Origin: an uncultured Porphyromonadaceae bacterium
Lineage (GTDB): Bacteria > Bacteroidota > Bacteroidia > Bacteroidales > Muribaculaceae
Assembly (NCBI GenBank): GCA_947174335.1
Contig: CAMWIM010000004.1
Coordinates: 6,997 to 70,996 of the forward strand
Direction of reading: 5' to 3'
Length of the DNA stretch: 64,000 nucleotides
A program made the translations under genes and the position numbers. Shown in pieces: positions 5,356 to 52,059 of this stretch (positions are counted from its first letter, which is position 1; each line of letters begins with the position of its first letter). Below the pieces are notes generated by a model. It was not told the DNA's origin. It ran no database searches and saw only the letters and a program-made list of their open reading frames with translations.

Positions 5356-5578
5356 TTACCGTTATCCAATGCGTGATTAATCCGTTTTTTTCGTGCTTTC
5401 AATACGGATTACATCCTTGTCAAGCCTTCAGGGAAGTACGTTATTTTTGACATCCCGGTGATATAACGTATGCCATTATGTCTCCGTGGCTTATGGATTT
5501 TATGTTTTTCAATATGTAAAAAAAAGAGGTTGCGTCTATTTTGACACAGCCTCTTTGTGTGTTATTTATAGCAGTATG

Positions 5579-6637
5579 CTACAATTCCCATTTGGTTTCT
5601 TCCATTGGGTCTGTAGCCGATTCTACTATTTCAGGTTCAATACCACCATTTGCAATCGCACCACTCAATGAGAATTCAAGAGTGTGCATCTTCATTCGCT
5701 TGAATGGAAAGCTATAATCACTTGACCAAAGCACGATTTCTTCATTTGCGGGAGTCTTATATATAATTTTATAATTTCCGGCTGCCCATACTGAACAATT
5801 CTCTGCAATCCAGGCAGCATCTCTCTTCCCCTGATAATTACTAAATCCCGCTGGGAATTGCACATTACATTCCATCGTATTTGTTCCGGTGGAATTTCCT
5901 TCCATTACAATAGAATCTTGTTGTTCATTGTATATAATTTTACCTTCATAGAAATCAGTAACCTTTATTCTGATACCATATTGCCAGCGATAAAGTTTTA
6001 TACTGACTTTCTTATTGTCATCATCAGGTTTAAAATTTCCGTATTCACCTTGATAGCGTAAAATTTGATTAATGTCATTTGGTTTGTTACTGGGCTCCCC
6101 TTTAGGGCAAGTTGCACTATGCACAAATCCAGCGTCACTAAAATCCTGATATACCACAGTGTTTAATTCTGGTACTGCATCATACCAACCCAACAGAGTA
6201 AATGGATTCATCCATTTACCTTCACCTGCTGGTTCTACAAGATTTTTGCCATCGGGAATATATGTTAAAGAAAAGTGGTAGTAATGCCTCTTGGATAGTT
6301 TCAAATTAATTAAGTTAGGATTATCAAAGATGGCACATGCTGCACCATTTACATGGGGACCACCGCCTTCTGCCGGGATAGAATCAACAGACTGAAACAC
6401 AGCTAAGGCATACAGGTCATCATTAGATGCTCTTGACATAGGAGATACTTCCCATTCAAGAGAGCTGAGAGCAAGAGATACTATTACGGAGTCTGAACTG
6501 ATTGTGGGTTCTTCCGGAGGTTCGGGAGTAGGATAGTCGGGTTCTTCGGCACCGCTCTGTGAGCAAGCTGCGGGAATAAGGGCAACAATGCCAAATAGCA
6601 TAATCCCCTTGATGTAATTGAAAAGTTTTGTTTTCAT
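5579..6637 (-). CDS. lipoprotein of unknown function (last gene of the LRR operon)
   Basis: MKTKLFNYIKGIMLFGIVALIPAAC signal and lipobox. 29-nt gap to the upstream gene on the same strand. Confidence 0.6.
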   Translation of the reverse strand: MKTKLFNYIKGIMLFGIVALIPAACSQSGAEEPDYPTPEPPEEPTISSDSVIVSLALSSLEWEVSPMSRASNDDLYALAVFQSVDSIPAEGGGPHVNGAACAIFDNPNLINLKLSKRHYYHFSLTYIPDGKNLVEPAGEGKWMNPFTLLGWYDAVPELNTVVYQDFSDAGFVHSATCPKGEPSNKPNDINQILRYQGEYGNFKPDDDNKKVSIKLYRWQYGIRIKVTDFYEGKIIYNEQQDSIVMEGNSTGTNTMECNVQFPAGFSNYQGKRDAAWIAENCSVWAAGNYKIIYKTPANEEIVLWSSDYSFPFKRMKMHTLEFSLSGAIANGGIEPEIVESATDPMEETKWEL

Positions 6638-6666: not shown

Positions 6667-6990
6667 TTACATTTTCATTTCTTCAGGCTTGATGTACTTG
6701 AGAATAATTCTGCCGTTCAAATTAGCCGGGACAACAGTTTCATTATGTTCCCCAATGTAAAGAATTATATCCCCTGCGAGAACTTCAATTTTGACAGGCA
6801 AATTACCATTTTCATCAAGTACTTCAGGTTTTATTTCGACTGAACCCAAAATTTTCCACACTTCCTGTCCATCGATAGACTCTATGGTGAAATCATTTAA
6901 GATTCCTCGTTCTTTTTGCTCATTAAGGGATTTGAAAAACTTATTAGTTCCCTTCTTGACTCTTTCTATTGAATCTTTGAAAAGTCTCAT
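6667..6990 (-). CDS. hypothetical small protein
   Basis: 107-aa ORF packed between same-strand genes (gaps of 22 and 29 nt). No recognisable motif. Confidence 0.45.
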   Translation of the reverse strand: MRLFKDSIERVKKGTNKFFKSLNEQKERGILNDFTIESIDGQEVWKILGSVEIKPEVLDENGNLPVKIEVLAGDIILYIGEHNETVVPANLNGRIILKYIKPEEMKM

Positions 6991-7012: not shown

Positions 7013-7447
7013 TTATTTTGGAATTTCATCATACCAACGACCTTCAATATCAATATAGCCGTTTTTGTGTTGGAAAGGTATTCCGACAATATTTTCATCG
7101 TCGAAATCAGACTCGTTTATAATGCTATCAGCAATTTCATCAAAGGATTTAAGAATGCGACTTCCATCATTTTGAACAAACAATCTTGCATTCACAGAAG
7201 TCTTAACTTTAGCATATCCATTTTTAAAAAATTCAGCTATTACAAATACAGCCGGAACGAGATATGAACCATCCGGTTTGAGATAGCCCCATTCTCCTTC
7301 AAATTTGTCCCATTTAATTTTAAATGCGGCGAAACCATTGCAGAAGTCCCGAACTTCATCAAATTTTGGCTCAATGACCCATAGACCTTCAGAGTCAACG
7401 AAGCCATATTTACCGTCTCTATTTTGTTTAGATTTTAATTCAATCAT
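7013..7447 (-). CDS. WG-repeat (KWG) protein
   Basis: Repeated GKYGFVDSEG..VIEPKF and WGYLKPDGSYLVP..F motifs, typical of WG-containing repeats. Confidence 0.7.
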   Translation of the reverse strand: MIELKSKQNRDGKYGFVDSEGLWVIEPKFDEVRDFCNGFAAFKIKWDKFEGEWGYLKPDGSYLVPAVFVIAEFFKNGYAKVKTSVNARLFVQNDGSRILKSFDEIADSIINESDFDDENIVGIPFQHKNGYIDIEGRWYDEIPK

Positions 7448-7504: not shown

Positions 7505-10312
7505 TTAGTCAACGTATATTATCTCAGCATTCCCTTTGGACATATTGCTGATAGTGATACCACTTTTTAAATATAATGTATTTAGAGTCGACATACTGCA
7601 ATATAAATCGGTCAGGGCTGTATTCTTTGAGAGATCCAACGTAGTAAGCTTGTTATCCAAACAATACAACTTACTCAGAGCTGTGCAACTTGTTACATCT
7701 AATGAAGTTAATTGATTCATATCGCAATGTAGCTCTGTCAGTGCTTCATTTTTTGATATATTTAATAATGTTAAATTGTTCAAGTAGCATCTTAAAAAAG
7801 TTAGCGCCATATTATTTGAGACATCTAACGTAGACAATTTGTTTTTATCACAGTTCAATTTCGACAGCAGTGTATTCCTTGAGACATCCAAGGAGGAGAG
7901 CTGGTTATCGTTACAGTCTAAGGATTTCAGCATAGTACAATCTGAGACATTCAATATTGTCAACTGATTGCTGTAACACTCTAAATCAATCAGTGCTGTA
8001 TTTCTTGTGATATCCAATGAAGTCAGCTGATTATTACCACATACCAACTTAGTAAGCGATGTATTCTTGAACACGTCCAACATTGTCAATTTATTTAAAT
8101 GACAATCCAACTCCGTCAGCATTGTGTTATTTGAAACATCTAATGTTGTCAACTTATTATTACCGCAATTTAGCTTCTTAAGAGTTGTATTTTTTTTGAC
8201 ATCTAATGATGTCAACTGATTTTTTTCGCAATTCAACTCATTAAGCACTGTATTATTTGACACATCTAATGATGTCAACTTATTAAAGTAACAATTCAAA
8301 TATGTCAGCGCGGTACTGCTTGATACATCCAACGTTCTCAAATCGTTGGTACTGTTGCAATCTAATTTAGTCAGCGATGTACATCCTGAGACATCCAAAG
8401 AGGTCATAGAATGATTAAAACTACAATCCAACTCAATTAATGCTTTAAAACCAGAAACATCTAACGAGGTCAACTTGTTTGAGGAGCACTTCAAGTTAGT
8501 GAGGACTGTATTGTTAGATAAATCCAACGAGGTCAACTGGTTTGAGTAGCATTCCAAATTAGTCAGGGCTGTATTGTTAGATAAATCCAACGATGTCAAC
8601 TGATTATAATAGCAACTTAGATCGTTTAAATTTTTAAAATATTGTATTCCCTCAAGTGATTTAATGCTTTTAAAACCACAAGAGACTCTTGTAACATTTA
8701 ATGCTTCCTTGCCTGAAATGACACCATCTTTATCTTTATCAAAATTACTCAAAACATAACTACGGAAATTTTCATCAGGGAAGGCTATAGTCATATCTGA
8801 AGGAATTGAAAATGTAAACTCTTCCTGGCTAATTTTAATTGAAGTGAAAGCTTTTCCGGTTTTATCTACTATTTGTATAGTAGCGCTACGAGCATCTCCA
8901 TTATTTTCACTTACTAACAAAGTAATTGTTTCTTTTCGGTTTGCTCTTGATTCAACAGTGCTAATCCAACTTTTTACGTCGGTGGGGATTGACAGAGAGT
9001 AGTCGGTATTGGTTTCTATATTGATACTTACTGACCCACCTGTTGTCGGAACTTGATATGTCTCTCCACTTGTTACCTTTAAAAATTCTTCCTCTTTGCC
9101 ATTTCCCTGGTTAATCTCAATTGAGGTGAAAGCGTTACCGTCTTTATCTACTAATTGAATGTGTGAGGTACGGGCAACATCTTTATTCTCCCTAATTAAT
9201 AAAGTGATTGTTTCTTGACGGTGGGTGCGTGATTCAACTTTGCTAACCCAATGTTTATCTTCGTCAGGAATTGAAAGGTCGAAGTCTGTATTTGTTTCGA
9301 GATTGATACTTACGGTTCCACCGGTTTTGGGTACTTGATATGTTGTTCCGCTTGTTACCTGCAAAAAATCTTCTTCGCCAAACGAAATGCTGCTCATCAC
9401 AGTTACCTTACCGTTTGATGCAAGCAAGATGACCTTGTCATATTCGTCAATAGCATCCCCGGTAATAATAGAGATGGTACCTTTTGCTGAATTACGATTA
9501 TTTAATTTTGCTTTGACATTACCCGATGAAATAACCTCCAATTTGAGTCCAACGACGCTTCCTTCAACAACATAGCTGATATTATAGGTCGAATTAGGAG
9601 AAACTGATTTTAGTTCGGCAAGCGTTTGCTCATCAAATTTTATGGTTAACTCTGCTTGACGAGGGAGTGTAAATTTAGTGCCGTCTGACAGAGTAAAGGT
9701 TACTTTTTGAGGGTCTGAGGTGTCAATGTCGTTGAAAACTGCATTTTTACCGTCGGCGGTGCCTTTGCCGAGATTGACCCAGGTTTTGCCACCGTCAGCC
9801 GACATCAACCAGTTGTCTTTGTCAATTTTAAACTCGGGAAGAACAACATCTGATGTTCCGGTAGTACCAACTTTATTCCCATCTTCGCTGAGTATCCATT
9901 CTCCGTTGATAGTCCAATAATAATCTCCTTTTTCATCTTGTTTGATTCCAATAACGGGGGCTGAACCATTAGTGCCATCAGCACCATTGATGCCATTGAC
10001 GCCGTCTTGACCATCTTTACCGTGATAAACCGAGATTGACGGACTTTTGACAAATGCAAATGTATAGCCGACCTCTTTTTCGCCCTCTTTGATCGGAGTA
10101 ACTGAAGTGATAGCATCTCCGTTTTCCATAGCGTTAACCAATGTCTGAATCGATGTGACATTAGTATTCAGTTGTTTGCACTGTTCTTCGAGCGACTTCA
10201 CTCGATTTTCAAGATTTTCAACGCGATTGCTCAATGGTCCGTCGTCATACTTGTCACAAGATGACAATGCGAATAGAGCAACCGCACAAATGGAGAGAAT
10301 AAAATTCTTCAT
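7505..10312 (-). CDS. surface lipoprotein: N-terminal coiled-coil domain + two BACON-like domains + about 17 leucine-rich repeats
   Basis: Lipobox LSSC. Duplicated module YQVPxTGGxVSINxETNTDxxLSIP (BACON-like). Long array of 22-aa LTSLDVSxNTxLTxLxCxxNx repeats. Confidence 0.85.
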   Translation of the reverse strand: MKNFILSICAVALFALSSCDKYDDGPLSNRVENLENRVKSLEEQCKQLNTNVTSIQTLVNAMENGDAITSVTPIKEGEKEVGYTFAFVKSPSISVYHGKDGQDGVNGINGADGTNGSAPVIGIKQDEKGDYYWTINGEWILSEDGNKVGTTGTSDVVLPEFKIDKDNWLMSADGGKTWVNLGKGTADGKNAVFNDIDTSDPQKVTFTLSDGTKFTLPRQAELTIKFDEQTLAELKSVSPNSTYNISYVVEGSVVGLKLEVISSGNVKAKLNNRNSAKGTISIITGDAIDEYDKVILLASNGKVTVMSSISFGEEDFLQVTSGTTYQVPKTGGTVSINLETNTDFDLSIPDEDKHWVSKVESRTHRQETITLLIRENKDVARTSHIQLVDKDGNAFTSIEINQGNGKEEEFLKVTSGETYQVPTTGGSVSINIETNTDYSLSIPTDVKSWISTVESRANRKETITLLVSENNGDARSATIQIVDKTGKAFTSIKISQEEFTFSIPSDMTIAFPDENFRSYVLSNFDKDKDGVISGKEALNVTRVSCGFKSIKSLEGIQYFKNLNDLSCYYNQLTSLDLSNNTALTNLECYSNQLTSLDLSNNTVLTNLKCSSNKLTSLDVSGFKALIELDCSFNHSMTSLDVSGCTSLTKLDCNSTNDLRTLDVSSSTALTYLNCYFNKLTSLDVSNNTVLNELNCEKNQLTSLDVKKNTTLKKLNCGNNKLTTLDVSNNTMLTELDCHLNKLTMLDVFKNTSLTKLVCGNNQLTSLDITRNTALIDLECYSNQLTILNVSDCTMLKSLDCNDNQLSSLDVSRNTLLSKLNCDKNKLSTLDVSNNMALTFLRCYLNNLTLLNISKNEALTELHCDMNQLTSLDVTSCTALSKLYCLDNKLTTLDLSKNTALTDLYCSMSTLNTLYLKSGITISNMSKGNAEIIYVD
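7570..8640 (-). repeat. 66-bp-period coding tandem array (LRR units) inside the LRR gene
   Basis: Recurring gtcaa(c/t)tg.tt / acatc(t/c)aa(c/t)g blocks visible at about 66-bp spacing. Matches the 22-aa protein repeats. Confidence 0.8.
8830..9370 (-). repeat. internal tandem duplication encoding two BACON-like modules
   Basis: Protein segments FLQVTSGTTYQVPKTGG...IEINQG and FLKVTSGETYQVPTTGG...IKISQE are collinear and highly similar. Confidence 0.75.
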
Positions 10313-10645
10313 TATTAAAATAAGATTGGTTCAATGTCCGACCAACACCCACTCGGACTGGTATATACAAAAAAGCGTGGTGCCGAACTAAGTTGCTCGT
10401 TCCACGTCTTGAGGCCTTCGCATTGCCTAACATCAAAGAACAAGCAAAGTAGAAGACCCACGCTGTATGGTATATATAAATATATACACATCAGGTGTCA
10501 CTACTTATGCTTCGTTCGATTGATGTTTATTTTGAAAGTTGCGAAGTTCCAAGACATCAGAACTGAAGCGCGATAGTAACGCTTTATGTTTTATTTAAAC
10601 CATCAAAAATCTCCTCGCTCGGAGGGTTGATGACATCGCAAATTT
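10313..10645 (-). promoter_or_regulatory. structured 5' leader, copy A (promoter to start codon of the LRR operon)
   Basis: The -7 box TAAATTTG is the reverse complement (rc) of 10638-10645. Small hairpin at 10566-10582. Box gttgcgaagtt at 10537-10547. Long hairpin at 10374-10462 with the conserved apex aggccttcgcattgcc at 10411-10426. U-tract is the rc of 10368-10373. Same blocks and order as copies B and C. Confidence 0.7.
10368..10462 (-). terminator. terminator-like long hairpin + U6 inside leader A
   Basis: GCGTGG (10374-79) pairs with CCACGC (10457-62). Inner stem gttgctcgttc/gaacaagcaa. On the minus strand the hairpin is followed by UUUUUU. Confidence 0.6.
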
Positions 10646-10825
10646 ACGACATAATTTTGAAGTAACCAAATAGGTTGCACAAAATACAGTGTTTTACAGG
10701 TCATCAAAATGGTTTATAGCGTGGGCCTTTTTCCTTTGCCACTGCAAAATTAAATGAAATTAATTCAAAAACTATCATCCACTTCATCCATTTTGGGGGT
10801 AGACAAATTCCTTACGAGCTATTAT

Positions 10826-10850: not shown

Positions 10851-10919
10851 GATGTCGTGTTTTGAAATGTTTTGGCACTCACGTTGTTATATAAAAAAAA
10901 AGTATTATCTTTGCGAGTT

Positions 10920-11495
10920 ATGAAATCAAAAGAGCAAATTCTAAAGATTAGAGCGACTGTATTATATATACTGAGTGCATTTCCAAAGGGTATAGACTAC
11001 ATTAAACTTTTTAAGATTTTATATTATGCCCAACAGAAGCATTTGGTATGTTATGGTCGTACTATAATCAACGATAATTTTCAAGCTCGACAAAAAGGTC
11101 CGGTTTGTGGATTTGTACGTAAAGGATTGAAGCTTATTGAAAATTCAAAAAAACTTGAGGATGATTTTTTGATATTTGGTAAAAATATTCAGGTTTCCAT
11201 GGGGAAAGATTGTCAAATTATAAGTTCTCATGAGATGCCGGATATGGATGAATTGTCAGTTTCAGAAAAAAAATGTCTTGATACATTCATTGAAAAATTT
11301 AGAGATATGAATTCTAAAGATGTATCAGATTTTTCACATAAAGATAAAGCATGGGAAAGAGCGTTTAACAGAGCTAAAGATGATCCTCAGCTTAGGGTGA
11401 TGACAATACTTGAAATTGCCGAATCAGGAGGAGCGAATCATAATACATTAGCTTACATTAAAGAGAATCTTGAATTGGATCAATCGTTGAACTAA
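10920..11495 (+). CDS. Panacea/SocA (DUF4065) domain protein, putative antitoxin
   Basis: IKLFKILYYAQQKHL...FQARQKGPV matches the KLxKLLYYA..W..GPV DUF4065 signature. I prefer the ATG at 10920, downstream of the -7 box, to the TTG at 10872. Confidence 0.7.
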   Translation: MKSKEQILKIRATVLYILSAFPKGIDYIKLFKILYYAQQKHLVCYGRTIINDNFQARQKGPVCGFVRKGLKLIENSKKLEDDFLIFGKNIQVSMGKDCQIISSHEMPDMDELSVSEKKCLDTFIEKFRDMNSKDVSDFSHKDKAWERAFNRAKDDPQLRVMTILEIAESGGANHNTLAYIKENLELDQSLN

Positions 11496-11923
11496 TGGAT
11501 CGCAAAATTCAACTTGGTGATATTTATTACATTTCCTTAACTCGTGATGATGATGTGACGCCAAAAGGTGGTCTTGACCACCGAAAAAAGTATTGTTTTG
11601 TTGTCGGTTTCTCAGAATATGGATTTTATGTTGCGTACTTCTTGATGAACAGTGAAGTTAACAAAAAATATATCAATACAAATGAGCGTTTGTCGTGCCA
11701 ATATCCATTATCTCATTCAGATTATCCTTTAATAATCAAACCCGAAAAGGATCCTTCATTTCTTGACTTGGGCCATGTTAGAGAGATTGAAAAGACACGT
11801 ATGTTGACTGAAGGTAAATATTGTGGATCCCTAACGGAAACTGATCACCGAAATATTTTTGAATGGTTACGAGATTCAGAACAGTATTCGCCAAAAATGA
11901 AACGAAAGTATGGTTGGGTTTAA
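11495..11923 (+). CDS. putative toxin partner of the Panacea-domain protein (unknown family)
   Basis: Its start codon overlaps the upstream stop (TAATG). 142 aa with no recognisable motif. Confidence 0.45.
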   Translation: MDRKIQLGDIYYISLTRDDDVTPKGGLDHRKKYCFVVGFSEYGFYVAYFLMNSEVNKKYINTNERLSCQYPLSHSDYPLIIKPEKDPSFLDLGHVREIEKTRMLTEGKYCGSLTETDHRNIFEWLRDSEQYSPKMKRKYGWV

Positions 11924-15825: not shown

Positions 15826-18489
15826 TCAGTCGATATATTTGATTTCGGTCTTTGAATTGATAAACTCGATTCCGCGGTTGATATTTATACCGTTAATTCT
15901 GAATCCGGTCTTCAGATACAAGGTCTTGAGCGACGGCATTACGCACCATAGATCGGTCAGCTCCGTGTTTTTAGAGAGGTCTAATGTCGTGAGCTGATTT
16001 CCGTTACAGTTCATCATATATAACTCGGTGTTGTTCGAGAGATCAAGCGTTGTGAGTTGGTTTTCAGAACAATCAATATCAGCAAGTGCTGTATTTTTTG
16101 TAAAATTGACCGAGGTCAATTTATTGTCGTAGCAATACAGGTGGGTCAAAGTTGTAAGAGGGGATAGATCTAATTCGGTTAACTCATTATGATAACAATG
16201 TAGCTCGGTTATCTTTGTGTTCTGAGAGATATCTAACGACGTTATATCGTTATATGAGCAGTCAAAATAGGTTATCTCAGGGCAGTGAGAGCTGTCGAGC
16301 GAAATAAGCATGTTTTTGTGACAGTTCAGATATGTCAGTGACGGGCAATTTGCAAGATTCAATGAAAGAATCTGATTGTCGGCGCACAATATCTGGGTAA
16401 GTTCGGGACAATTTGGAATTTTAAGTGAGGTCAGCAGATTTGATTCGCACCACAACGATTTGAGTGCAGTGCAGTTAGATACGTTTAGCGAATACAGCTT
16501 GTTGTTAGAGCAAGACAGCGAGGTCAATGCCTGACACTTTGATACATCCAACGAATTCAGACGGTTGCCCGAGCATGATAACGAAGTCAGAGCCGGGTTA
16601 TTAGATAGATTCAGTGATGTGAGGTGATTGCCGTAACACTCCAGCTCGGTCAGAGCCGGGCAATTAGAAAGATTCAGAGTGCCGATCAGATTGTCAGAAC
16701 AGTCTAAATAGGTCAGAGCTTTGGAATTGGATAAATCTATTGAAATTAAACGGTTGTTGTAGCATTTCACACTGGTTAACTCCGGACAACAAGCGAGGTT
16801 GAGCGTTATTAGGTCGTTGCCATAGCAATCCAGGTCGGTCAGGCGGGGGCAGTTTGAGAGGTCAAGCGATGTCAGGTAGCAGCTGCACGACAGTGTGGTC
16901 AAAGCCGGGCAATAAGATAAATCTAAAGTTGTCAAATTGTTAGCCGAGCAATCAAGATATGTCAGTGCTGCACATTTTGACAAATTCAGATATGGAATCT
17001 CATTTGTGCGACATTTCAATTCAGTCAGTTCGGCGCAGTCCGAAATATCAAGCGATGCAATTAGATTGTTTTCGCAATTCAAGCTTGTCAATGCTTTATT
17101 TTCAGAGAGATTGAGAGTGGTTATTTCGTTATTTGAGCAATTGAGAACTTTCAGATTTGAGAAATATTGAATACCCTCAAGCGATTTAATGGTGTAAATC
17201 GATCGTTTTGATACGTCGAGTGTCGTTACCGCTAACGCCTCTTCTTTAGAGAGAGTCCCGTCGTGGTTGGTGTCTAAATCTTCCAACACATATCTTCTAA
17301 ATAACACATCGGGGAAAGCCGATTGCATATTTGACGGAATCTCGGTGTTAAGCGATTGACCCTCTTGGCTGATTTGTATCATTGCCAATGTTATCCCATC
17401 GATGTTTGTTAGATACACTTTGGTTGTGCGGGTGACATCGTTGTTTGGTGAAATATTCAGTGTGATAGTCTCTTGCCTGATTGCTCGCGATGTAACCTCG
17501 CTGATCCATCCTTGGGCATCTTCAGGAATAGAGACCGAATAATCGGTGTTGGTTTCGATGGTAAATTCTATAGTCCCGCCCTCATTCTCGACGTTATAAA
17601 AAGCTTCAGAAGTGATATGTATAAATTCGTCTTCTTCAAACGACAAACTCTTTGATACCGAAGTAGAGCCGTTTGAAGCGATCAAGATTAACTTGTCAAG
17701 TTCGCCAATTGTTTCTCCGGTTTGAATGGTGATTGTTCCTTTTGCTGATTCGGCATCTTCAATCTCAGCCTTGATATTGCCCGATGTTACAACCTCAACA
17801 TTCAGCCCTTTGGTTTCACCCATAATGGTATAGGCTACTCTGATTGTCGCGTTAGGTTCGACCGGAATATTATTGTCAACGTCGTCAATGTTGAATGTGA
17901 TGGTTAATTCTGGCTGGCGGGGTATTATAAGTTTCTCGCCATTTGACAACGTAAAGACAACCTTCTCTGCATCAGACATATCAATGTCGCTGAAAAGCAC
18001 ATTGTTGCCTTGACCGAGATTGATCCAGCTTTTACCATTATCGAGGGAAACATACCAATTTTTTTTCTCAATCTTAAGTGTCGGTAGAACAGCAAATTCC
18101 GATCCGTAAGGCATGACCTTATTACTGTTGCTGTCAAGTAGCCAACCGTCGTTTAAAGTCCAGTAATAAATGCTGTCACTATCTTGCTTGATGCCGATTG
18201 AGGGTGATGTCGAGCTATTCCCGTAATAGATTGAGATAGGCTTATTTATAGCGAATGCAAAAGTATAGCCGACCTCTTTATCATCTTCAATTAGTGGCGA
18301 AATAGAAGTGATAAGGTCGTTATCATGCAAAATGTCAACCAACGCTTGTAAGGCGGTAATATTGGAATTTATCTGATTACACACCTCATCAAGCTGCTCA
18401 TCAGGATAGCCGGGCTCCTCTTTGTCATCATTACAACCGACTAAAACCATGATTGTTATCAAGAAAAGTGTGTATATAAATTTTTTCAT
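15826..18489 (-). CDS. surface lipoprotein, paralog of 7505..10312 (one BACON-like module + LRR array)
   Basis: Lipobox LVGC. Same N-terminal domain (ITSISPL.EDDKEVGYTFAF). About 66-bp coding repeats at roughly 15900-17160. Short-leader promoter (rc of 18522-18529 = TAACTTTG). Confidence 0.85.
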   Translation of the reverse strand: MKKFIYTLFLITIMVLVGCNDDKEEPGYPDEQLDEVCNQINSNITALQALVDILHDNDLITSISPLIEDDKEVGYTFAFAINKPISIYYGNSSTSPSIGIKQDSDSIYYWTLNDGWLLDSNSNKVMPYGSEFAVLPTLKIEKKNWYVSLDNGKSWINLGQGNNVLFSDIDMSDAEKVVFTLSNGEKLIIPRQPELTITFNIDDVDNNIPVEPNATIRVAYTIMGETKGLNVEVVTSGNIKAEIEDAESAKGTITIQTGETIGELDKLILIASNGSTSVSKSLSFEEDEFIHITSEAFYNVENEGGTIEFTIETNTDYSVSIPEDAQGWISEVTSRAIRQETITLNISPNNDVTRTTKVYLTNIDGITLAMIQISQEGQSLNTEIPSNMQSAFPDVLFRRYVLEDLDTNHDGTLSKEEALAVTTLDVSKRSIYTIKSLEGIQYFSNLKVLNCSNNEITTLNLSENKALTSLNCENNLIASLDISDCAELTELKCRTNEIPYLNLSKCAALTYLDCSANNLTTLDLSYCPALTTLSCSCYLTSLDLSNCPRLTDLDCYGNDLITLNLACCPELTSVKCYNNRLISIDLSNSKALTYLDCSDNLIGTLNLSNCPALTELECYGNHLTSLNLSNNPALTSLSCSGNRLNSLDVSKCQALTSLSCSNNKLYSLNVSNCTALKSLWCESNLLTSLKIPNCPELTQILCADNQILSLNLANCPSLTYLNCHKNMLISLDSSHCPEITYFDCSYNDITSLDISQNTKITELHCYHNELTELDLSPLTTLTHLYCYDNKLTSVNFTKNTALADIDCSENQLTTLDLSNNTELYMMNCNGNQLTTLDLSKNTELTDLWCVMPSLKTLYLKTGFRINGININRGIEFINSKTEIKYID

Positions 18490-21972: not shown

Positions 21973-22346
21973 GGCTGTTTATGGTGCCTTCGGACTCCCC
22001 TCGTTGGCATTTATCAGATTATAAAAAGAGAGCGTGAGAGCCGTACCTGCTGCTCGTTCCACAATTGGAGGCCTTCGCATTGCCCGGTTAGTTGAACGAG
22101 CAACTGCAGAAGCCTCACGCAGAATATGCCTATACAATAACATATGGTACTCACGCACCAATTGTTATTGGAATGTACATATCCACAAGACATCTACCGT
22201 TGCTACAATCCTGACTAACCTAAGAAAGTTGCGAAGTTTCCAATTGTCAAGAAAGAGCGTCGAGTAAACGCTATCTAAAAATGTTAGCCGACCCTCCCGC
22301 ATTTCCCATACCAAGGCTTCTGCGTTTAGATCTGCGGTGCAAAGTT
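21973..22346 (-). promoter_or_regulatory. structured 5' leader, copy B
   Basis: The -7 box TAACTTTG is the rc of 22339-22346. Small hairpin at 22255-22271. Box gttgcgaagtt at 22227-22237. Long hairpin at 22031-22119 with apex aggccttcgcattgcc at 22068-22083. U-rich tract is the rc of 22022-22030. Confidence 0.7.
22022..22119 (-). terminator. terminator-like long hairpin + U-tract inside leader B
   Basis: GCGTGAG (22031-37) pairs with CTCACGC (22113-19). Inner stem ctgctcgttc/gaacgagca. Followed on the minus strand by UCUCUUUUU. Confidence 0.55.
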
Positions 22347-51673: not shown

Positions 51674-52059
51674 TATGTATCTTTGAACTATGCAATTTTA
51701 CATTCATCGACCCCCTGATGAATATATAGATACAAAAAAAGCGCAGGATCCGTACTTGTTACTCGTCCTGCTGCTAAAGGCCTTCGCATTGCCCGAAATA
51801 GTAGAACGAGCAACGCAGAGCCTACGCCGTATGAATATATTATACACCATAGTAGACTATATTATAGATATAATCAACCAATGGGTACACATCATACCCG
51901 AAGACATCTACAGTTGCTTCATTCTCGACTATTTCTTAAGAGGTTGCGAAGTTCTTAGCAGCCAAGAATTAAGCGAAAGTAAACGCTTTTGAAATATGTT
52001 TTAAACCCACCCATCCGACGGATAATTTCGTCATCGGCGTAGATTTCACTGCAAAATTA
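51674..52059 (-). promoter_or_regulatory. structured 5' leader, copy C (in front of the six-gene operon)
   Basis: The -7 box TAATTTTG is the rc of 52052-52059. Small hairpin at 51972-51987. Box gttgcgaagtt at 51943-51953. Long hairpin at 51741-51827 with apex aggccttcgcattgcc at 51778-51793. U7 is the rc of 51734-51740. Confidence 0.7.
51734..51827 (-). terminator. terminator-like long hairpin + U7 inside leader C
   Basis: GCGCAGG (51741-47) pairs with CCTACGC (51821-27), with a G.U pair only if read on the minus strand. Inner stem gttactcgt/acgagcaac. Followed on the minus strand by UUUUUUU. Confidence 0.6.

Follow-up and report, generated by a model that had tools for sequence, protein, structure and literature searches.

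A multicopy structured leader RNA of Bacteroidales in front of a surface-protein operon: a candidate transcription attenuator

Why should the operon of a surface lipoprotein be preceded by some 320 nucleotides (nt) that contain no credible gene? We have analyzed this question in a window of 64,000 nt (the whole stretch of DNA examined) from an uncultured Porphyromonadaceae bacterium of the Muribaculaceae (assembly GCA_947174335.1, contig CAMWIM010000004.1, positions 6,997 to 70,996). The leader in question, copy A, occupies ~10632-10313 on the minus strand, between a promoter and the ATG at 10312 of a leucine-rich-repeat (LRR) lipoprotein gene, which is followed by three more genes. The leader structure is real, conserved, and new relative to Rfam and the searched literature. 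We favour, with moderate confidence, a reading in which copy A belongs to an extensive and so far uncatalogued family of cis-acting 5' leader RNAs in Bacteroidales and acts as a bistable attenuator of transcription, probably adjusting the amount of transcription that arrives at the downstream genes.

Conserved structure of the leader

An alignment of 53 non-redundant leader copies (A3) is the basis of all counts out of 53 given below. It reveals a common order of promoter, variable 5' element, 5' arm hairpin, middle hairpin, terminator hairpin, U-run, spacer and AUG, in leaders of ~260-400 nt. The promoter box is aligned in at least 48 of the 53 copies. The 5' element of most copies reads GCAGACCG..GCAGAAGCC-CGGUC..GGG..GCGGGUGGG and includes a GGGUGGG element. 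The family helices of the 5' arm are Hd (GCGUUUAC/GUAGAUGC), Hf (UCUUGAC/GUCAAGA) and Hg (GAAA/UUUC), and those of the terminator are T1 (GCGUGAG/CUCACGC), T2 (GUUGCUCGUUC/GAACGAGCAAC) and T3 (GGC/GCC). The middle hairpin, which is 60-90 nt long elsewhere, has a conserved base, GGAUAUGUA/UACAUAUUC. The predicted features of copy A, in the order of transcription, are as follows.

10601..10632, minus: private 5' stem-loop CAUCA..CCUC-CGAGCG-GAGG..UGAUG, seen in minimum free energy (MFE) and centroid folds, which replaces GCAGACCG..GCAGAAGCC..GGGUGGG
10497..10583, minus: 5' arm, able to fold as a local hairpin; covariance model R1, 47.7 bits, E = 4.7e-8
10583-10580 / 10570-10567, minus: AGCG/CGCU helix of the 5' arm
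10559-10549, minus: K2-5', UGAUGUCUUGG, apical 5' arm
10546-10540, minus: K1-5', CUUCGCA, apical 5' arm
10527-10520, minus: K3-5', AACAUCAA, apical 5' arm
10517-10501, minus: candidate antiterminator strand GAACGAAGCAUAAGUAG, apical 5' arm
ending at 10497, minus: Hd, GUUACUA/UAGUGAC
10466..10494, minus: truncated middle hairpin, with an AT hairpin GUAUAUAU/AUAUAUAC (10487-10470) at its apex
10369..10463, minus: terminator hairpin and U-run; hairpin alone -36.1 kcal/mol
10463-10458 / 10380-10375, minus: T1, GCGUGG/CCACGC
10448-10438 / 10402-10392, minus: T2, UUUGCUUGUUC/GAACGAGCAAC
10436-10429, minus: K3-3', UUGAUGUU
10422-10416, minus: K1-3' loop UGCGAAG, enclosed by T3 (GGC/GCC)
10411-10403, minus: K2-3', CAAGACGUG
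10374-10369, minus: UUUUUU of the terminator, with 55 nt from U-run to ATG
10313..10368, minus: post-terminator spacer with a hairpin (GUCCGA 10358-10353 / UCGGAC 10341-10336), then AU-rich; no promoter box

The whole leader of copy A has an MFE of -100.3 kcal/mol, compared with -72.6 +/- 4.9 for shuffles (z = -5.6). In the 53-copy structure the share of paired cells is 88.3%; column shuffles give 81.6%, and none of them (0 of 500) reached as high a value. Double-sided changes number 308, with 105 expected, and sliding the partners by 1-3 columns reduces pairing to ~40%. The 5' arm helices Hd and Hf are paired in 97.6% and 96.0% of cells, respectively; the small local helices Hg (84%) and T2b (CUGC/GCAG, 60%) are weakly supported. 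T1 and T2 covary across the family (AU 24 / GC 24; CG 22 / UA 20), and private compensatory changes put the Hd of copy A at top rank. G-U pairs are frequent (GU:47 and UG:48 in Hd, GU:17 in K2), and the constraint thus acts on this RNA strand and not on the DNA. At least 5 U are found among the 8 nt after the T1 stem in 52 of 53 copies; copy A has 7.

Copy A had been described as keeping every conserved block. This is correct for the core blocks common to copies A, B and C of the window, but three elements of the wider family are missing from it: the 5' GCAGAAGCC box with its GGGUGGG, a full-size middle hairpin, and a hairpin resembling a K-turn before the AUG. The AT hairpin that the earlier note had singled out is present (GTATATAT at 10487-10480, ATATATAC at 10477-10470), and forms the tip of the truncated middle hairpin; no part of the leader is less conserved than this AT hairpin, which is not the likely switch. 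As regards a possible leader peptide, frames starting at a conserved AUG of the middle hairpin, compared by eye, vary in length among copies A, B and a third copy of the same genome (own3).

Several elements of other copies deserve mention. The 5' element of copy B (GCAGACCG-N-GCAGAAGCC-CGGUC-N-GGG-N-GCGGGUGGG, window 22290-22335) also occurs in most copies. The GCAGAAGCC box in it can bind GGCUUCUGC, a part of the terminator 5' strand (85.8% paired, 6 of 8 pairs with double changes), and could be a third competitor for that strand, or a sensor domain. This pairing, Ha, is real in most copies but absent from copy A; it is therefore not essential to the core mechanism, and was rejected as such. 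Between U-run and AUG most copies other than A have a small hairpin of the form GCC-AAC-GA-GG...CC-GA-GGC (window 21980-22030 in copy B). Equivalent hairpins are found in, for example, L075, L038 and L133, and the outer stem covaries (GCC/GGC, GCU/AGC, GUC/GAC). We take it to resemble a K-turn of the U4/box C/D type and to be a possible protein-binding site at the translation start, perhaps for a protein of the L7Ae type. A hammerhead-like CUGAUGA..GAA in some of these hairpins was dismissed, as other copies show CAACGAG there. Finally, two copies (L148 and L149) of a genome that holds 13 (G111) represent a compact variant with a very short middle hairpin, which keeps matching K1 (CCUGGAA/UUCCAGG), K2 and K3 boxes.

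Two predicted folds

Each strand in the upper half of the 5' arm has its complement in the upper half of the terminator hairpin. The whole leader can in consequence form a giant hairpin with the middle hairpin at its tip, a fold from which T1 and the terminator are absent. In this fold AGCAAC..GUAGA, in the 3' half of the 5' arm, pairs with UCUGC..GUUGCU of the terminator 5' strand (89-91% paired, with few compensatory events), and by sequence inspection the segment before Hf can pair with the 3' strand of T2 (AAAAGCG with CGCUUUU). RNAfold predicts the giant hairpin as ground state for 50 of 53 copies, with a mean advantage of 10.9 kcal/mol over the summed local folds; for copy A the values are -84.6 and -77.1 kcal/mol. 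When copy A is folded stepwise, the nascent RNA of 139 nt forms the local 5' hairpin. Once the RNA reaches 10403 the giant helix is optimal (-74.6 vs -40.7 kcal/mol at 167 nt), at a stage where the 3' strand of the terminator is still untranscribed.

Two changes in the terminator 5' strand of copy A, GUUGC to UUUGC and UCUGC to UCUAC, are compensated in its own 5' arm and not in the 3' strand of T2, which places its pairing at the top of 53. This is the best single computational evidence for selection on antiterminator pairing in copy A. Both folds appear to be maintained, since covariation is also seen in the helices specific to the local folds (Hd, Hf, T1 and T2). Copy A is thus predicted to combine a promoter-proximal sense leader, a GC-rich hairpin with a U-run, and an alternative fold that excludes this hairpin. 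As the terminator is kept in 52 of 53 copies alongside a selected competing fold, conditional termination that would control the four-gene unit is the most economical reading.

The predominance of the giant hairpin raises a different possibility. It may be the sole relevant fold of a constitutive structural 5' untranslated region (UTR) that protects the mRNA 5' end and boosts abundant surface proteins, much as the ompA 5' UTR of E. coli is a precedent for a protective structured leader. The terminator-like hairpin would then be just the 3' half of the giant hairpin, and would rarely or never stop polymerase. The ground state predicted for 50 of 53 copies fits this idea, as do RNA contigs of a relative (below) in which leader and gene are joined at depths of 20-388 and no leader-only RNA is seen. 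A pure stabilizer, however, needs neither two self-folding arms nor a U-run placed directly after a GC-rich stem in 52 of 53 copies. Nor does it account for T1 and T2, which belong to the local fold only and covary by themselves, or for the covariation of Hd and Hf in the local 5' hairpin, including the private compensations of copy A. We therefore consider a constitutive UTR unlikely, though worth keeping in mind.

An imperfect duplex of ~60 bp or more, with conserved pairing and free sequence, is also a typical substrate of RNase III. Cleavage could separate the 5' part and set the half-life of the mRNA, and the pnp and rnc leaders are precedents for such processing. This would leave the conserved U-run and the covarying local hairpins unexplained, and the RNA contigs of the relative run uninterrupted from start site to open reading frame (ORF), though contigs would bridge a cleavage site. 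A processing or decay site is in our view decidedly improbable.

Copy-private pairing

The apical boxes of the two arms match each other within each copy by words that differ between copies. The K1 loop-loop pair is CUUCGCA/UGCGAAG in copies A, B and C and is spelled otherwise in other copies. K2 is ACAAUUGGA/UCCAAUUGU in copy B and UGAUGUCUUGG/CAAGACGUG in copy A, and K3 is GGUUAGU/ACUAACC in copy B and AACAUCAA/UUGAUGUU in copy A. Single K2 columns show four pair types (for example UA 19 / GC 15 / AU 11 / CG 4). Comparisons of cognate and non-cognate duplexes, which are independent of the alignment, gave mean energies for K1+K2 of -24.3 and -10.6 kcal/mol, respectively, with the own partner best in 48 of 53 copies. 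The corresponding means for K3 were -10.5 and -3.8 kcal/mol, with the own partner best in 35 of 53. Copy A with its own K1+K2 partner reaches -23.0 kcal/mol and ranks first of 53. Of 15 copies taken from ten genomes of other families, 12 retain the private pairing. A model of kissing loops only was rejected as incomplete, because K2 and K3 show that both strands of the upper halves are complementary.

Distribution of the leader family

A profile made from copies A, B and C identified 15 copies in the 2.4-Mb draft genome. The three copies recognized in the window by the earlier note are thus genuine as far as they go, B (~21973-22345) and C (~51674-52055) being real homologues of A, but the family in this genome is 15 strong. 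Copies were detected by BLAST in 22 of 41 relatives, and covariance model R1, which represents the 5' arm, matches 44 of 301 sampled Bacteroidales genomes that carry many family labels. The same model found no match with E <= 1e-5 in ~290 genomes from the rest of the phylum. A search of the whole 64-kb window against Rfam 15 (4227 families) returned nothing at the gathering threshold. With relaxed cutoffs, copy A up to E = 10 gave only chance matches of small nucleolar RNA (snoRNA) and microRNA (miRNA) type with E > 0.1, copy B up to E = 5 gave none, and the loci of three other copies up to E = 1 gave one chance match (SNORD59, E 0.33) far from the leader. Full-text literature searches found no description of this leader family.

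All copies lie downstream of a TAnnTTTG box and upstream of a gene, the distance from the end of the profile match to the ATG is 1-66 nt in the copies of this genome, and all complete copies are in sense orientation. The genes themselves are diverse. The claim that the leader is specific to the copy A locus and not a feature of the LRR gene family was overstated, as it is a modular cassette found at 15 loci. Besides copy A, on C4, at least four other DUF4988/LRR paralogues stand behind copies, directly on C48, C3 and C51 and, as one pair, further down a leader-fronted operon on C40. The leader is equally not universal in this gene family: the paralogue at 15826..18489 and others are without a copy. 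Elsewhere in the genome, copies on C11 and C2 precede another lipoprotein family, copy B precedes a small lipoprotein, and copy C precedes a defence-like cassette of radical-SAM, nuclease and helicase genes; the remaining copies precede other, non-surface genes. The first genes behind 49 copies from other genomes encode BspA-type LRR proteins (8), other LRR proteins (6), Ig-like proteins, a C10 peptidase, a SusC-like protein, glycosyltransferases, and many proteins of unknown function.

Six of the 15 copies (C14, C39, C50, C51, C10 and C63) are located within ~550 nt of a contig end. Logan DNA contigs, too, are interrupted within the conserved blocks of the leader, with depths there that rise abruptly to > 300. 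The contig-end location is explained by these blocks, whose k-mers are common to the copies and break assemblies. The family thus fragments metagenome assemblies and may be under-counted in metagenome-assembled genomes.

A multi-copy, long imperfect inverted repeat that often lies near contig ends might also be a DNA-level repeat whose place upstream of genes is accidental, for example a MITE-like element, a cruciform or a recombination site. We disfavour this possibility strongly. On the other strand the many G-U pairs would become A-C mismatches, and promoter, element and gene always have the same relative orientation. In a relative, transcription of the element begins at the predicted start, and neither target-site duplications nor a transposase were noted. 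The DNA runs contained no inversion joints, such as an invertible promoter would produce, and the contig breaks have the explanation given above.

The predicted transcription unit of copy A

The promoter of copy A, as read from the sequence, is of the canonical Bacteroidetes type (TTTG-N20-TAAATTTG). The unit comprises the following features.

10670-10667 and 10646-10639, minus: promoter, -33 TTTG, 20-nt spacer and -7 box TAAATTTG
~10628-10632, minus: predicted transcription start
7505..10312, minus: gene 1, 935 aa; DUF4988, BACON and LRR (Pfam); lipoprotein signal peptide
7013..7447, minus: gene 2, WG-repeat protein (Pfam WG_beta_rep); without signal peptide
6667..6990, minus: gene 3, 107 aa; no Pfam family; without signal peptide
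5579..6637, minus: gene 4, 352 aa; no Pfam family; lipoprotein signal peptide
5515..5550, minus: intrinsic terminator at the operon end, GAGG..CCUC and eight U, after gene 4

The earlier note had placed four genes on one strand behind the ATG at 10312, with gaps of 57, 22 and 29 nt, and the ORF coordinates bear this out. Its gene types (LRR lipoprotein, WG-repeat protein, small protein, lipoprotein) agree with the Pfam matches of genes 1 and 2 and the signal peptides of genes 1 and 4. The promoter box that it named is present, but lies at 10639-10646, one base away from the 10638-10645 that had been given. Its paralogous LRR gene at 15826..18489 indeed has no leader, and TAACTTTG is found only ~22 nt before the ATG of that gene. 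No TAnnTTTG box was found in the three gaps or between the U-run of the leader and the ATG. A single leader-fronted unit of four genes is the simplest reading of this arrangement, because no promoter box follows the U-run or occupies the gaps and a terminator follows gene 4; that copy A fronts the unit appears well supported.

Upstream of the promoter of copy A, at a distance of 106 nt, there is a second box, TAATTTTG (10745-10752, minus strand). It is probably not an active promoter, since the nearest TTTG is only 13 nt away. The GUGGCAAAGGAAAAAGGCCCAC that follows this box resembles the upstream promoter segment of the copies on C40 and C10. Divergent from the promoter region is a gene for a SocA/Panacea-domain antitoxin (PF13274, E = 3e-21; 10872-11923, plus strand), which is overlapped by an ORF of 142 aa without a Pfam match.

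Transcription in a relative

One Duncaniella genome, with copies L072, L142 and L144, is present in many mouse-gut metatranscriptomes. The RNA contigs of its three leaders begin 17-25 nt after the promoter box. Features of the individual loci are listed here.

L072, eight runs from four studies: RNA contig starts at 7259-7262, 17-20 nt after the TATTTTTG box; depth 20-230
L144, run X17: contig of 990 nt, depth 388, from ~1660 (76 nt before AGCGUUUA) through the terminator (1351) to near the ORF end
L142, run X18: expressed in X18 only; read through

The L072 contig runs for 1160-1246 nt through the terminator (7544) into the ORF (7603), and the DNA upstream of its start is a coverage gap. A second Duncaniella locus, L100, is absent from the chosen runs. 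The data from this relative confirm the promoter, the co-transcription of leader and gene, and read-through in vivo.

The three units vary strongly between mouse samples, with depths from 0 to 388 and the whole unit on or off. This points to a strong promoter-level or population-level variation of surface genes. In run X18 two RNA contigs end exactly at L142:751 and L142:901 with the Illumina adapter attached, which suggests abundant discrete RNA ends ~400-550 nt downstream of the terminator of that leader.

In RNA runs X4-X8 only the conserved blocks of relatives occur, as short contigs. Leader-sized contigs of this kind (in X5, X6 and X8) would be expected if the leader were chiefly the source of a stand-alone RNA. 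Termination at the U-run would then free a stable RNA of ~260 nt that acts in trans through its copy-specific loops, on nascent transcripts of its own locus (a dosage feedback) or on others, and the mRNA would be a read-through by-product. A promoter and terminator of its own, multiple copies, extensive structure and copy-private loops are all in keeping with such an RNA. The ends of the short contigs, however, coincide with blocks common to the copies, where assembly graphs break, and the contigs are thus not evidence of discrete RNAs. All complete copies are also sense-oriented and lie a short and similar distance before a gene start (copy A has 55 nt between U-run and ATG), and each private loop has its partner in cis. 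A stand-alone RNA consequently seems improbable to us.

A proposed mechanism

The attenuator that we favour would operate as follows. Transcription would begin a few bases past the TAAATTTG box, and the 5' arm (10583-10497) would be the first to fold, as a local hairpin. The 3' arm (10463-10375) could then fold on itself to form the terminator which, together with UUUUUU, would stop polymerase 55 nt before the ATG. Alternatively it could pair with the 5' arm strand for strand. The resulting giant hairpin would be nucleated by the complementary loops CUUCGCA/UGCGAAG, extended through UGAUGUCUUGG/CAAGACGUG and AACAUCAA/UUGAUGUU, and continued by GAAGCA..GUAG with the terminator 5' strand. This would remove the terminator and let polymerase continue into all four genes, beginning with that of the LRR lipoprotein. 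We infer a competition between the folds while the RNA is being made, and some factor that tips it one way or the other; this might be the speed or pausing of polymerase, the temperature, an RNA-binding protein, the single NusG paralogue, or the leader RNA released by termination. Besides the housekeeping NusG on C29, one NusG paralogue is encoded at C31:8039-8332 (32 bits, 188-aa frame); it is not beside any leader.

It had been claimed that the leader controls the operon. What stands of this is a structured, promoter-proximal leader with a terminator-like 3' hairpin directly before the LRR gene; the control itself we infer, and a number of observations weigh against it. This organism's own locus was not found in the RNA runs, and only DNA metagenomes contain it. 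No leader-only contig was seen in the Duncaniella runs, and silent units lack leader RNA too. This suggests that the main on/off control is at the promoter or at initiation, with the leader at most modulating, and that termination may be minor. Logan contigs give a single mean depth each, at which partial attenuation is neither visible nor excludable. No sensor or ligand pocket was identified, and genes as diverse as those downstream do not suit a metabolite signal. The K helices would also fit a four-way junction like that of CopA/CopT which keeps the lower terminator stem, and so alone they are no proof of an antiterminator. Covariation is thin for the truly exclusive pairs (AT1 and AT2), both strands being nearly invariant, and the energy comparisons of the two folds ignore pseudoknots.

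A more speculative idea, which we rate as doubtful at best, is that the copy-private complementary boxes are address codes. A terminated leader RNA would kiss nascent transcripts of the same locus and flip their fold, or would do so for a defined subset that shares a loop, as copies A, B and C share CUUCGCA. Such RNA-only, locus-specific feedback or cross-talk would form a network that chooses which surface-protein and defence operons each cell expresses, a cis/trans hybrid of plasmid antisense control serving surface variation in gut Bacteroidales.

Significance

To our knowledge, hardly anything has been learned about how Bacteroidota attenuate transcription, and the regulatory RNAs of the Muribaculaceae, an abundant gut family, are unexplored. 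The scale of the present family is considerable, with up to 15 copies per genome and an occurrence in about one in seven sampled Bacteroidales genomes. Its leaders front genes of the cell surface (BspA/LRR lipoproteins, Ig-like proteins, a protease, a SusC-like porin) and defence cassettes. If the leader is a working switch, it would provide a common control layer for host-facing and phage-facing functions, and an architecture that is new, its antiterminator being a hairpin that mirrors the terminator and locates it through loop-loop kissing. Each copy is a natural lock-and-key pair and hence directly testable.

Comparison with known systems

The leaders of Bacteroides capsular loci that depend on UpxY, a NusG paralogue, resemble the present family in being long 5' UTRs of Bacteroidales at surface-structure loci. 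The regulated step in these leaders is presumably premature termination, and the loci start with upxY/upxZ and have invertible promoters. An UpxY-dependent leader was rejected for copy A: no upxY is found behind any copy, the first gene is that of the LRR lipoprotein, the sole NusG paralogue is on C31, and no inversion was detected.

The FopS/GibS small RNAs of Bacteroides are 65-70 nt long, consist of a single-stranded 5' seed and a terminator, and act in trans on susC mRNAs; the FopS RNAs have been deposited in Rfam (PMC11697453). They are likewise multicopy RNAs of Bacteroidales, with canonical sigma-ABfr promoters and a link to the outer surface (PMC11697453). Membership in that family is ruled out by the length of the leaders (260-400 nt), their linkage in cis to a gene, and the lack of an Rfam match.

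Terminator/antiterminator leaders, which include classical attenuators and the riboswitch and T-box platforms, share with copy A the promoter-proximal position and the GC-rich hairpin with a U-run before the coding region. They also share an upstream segment that pairs with the 5' strand of this hairpin, so that the two folds are mutually exclusive. A catalogued riboswitch was rejected, as no curated aptamer model matched and the first genes behind 49 copies form no coherent metabolic context. Unlike these systems, the present leader has no recognizable aptamer, specifier, leader peptide or protein-binding box. The competitor here is a whole arm of 85 nt that mirrors the terminator hairpin and is itself a hairpin. 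Also unlike classical attenuators, the leader is found in 15 copies per genome before unrelated genes, and none of 4227 Rfam families matches it.

In its pairing the leader recalls CopA-CopT and other plasmid antisense systems, which have complementary loops and upper stems of sequence-private specificity. In CopA-CopT, too, pairing nucleates at the loops and leads to two inter-hairpin helices beside two retained lower stems. The present leader differs in that both partners are on one transcript, in cis and 130-190 nt apart, with no separate antisense gene, and in that the target hairpin is the terminator rather than the translation-initiation region.

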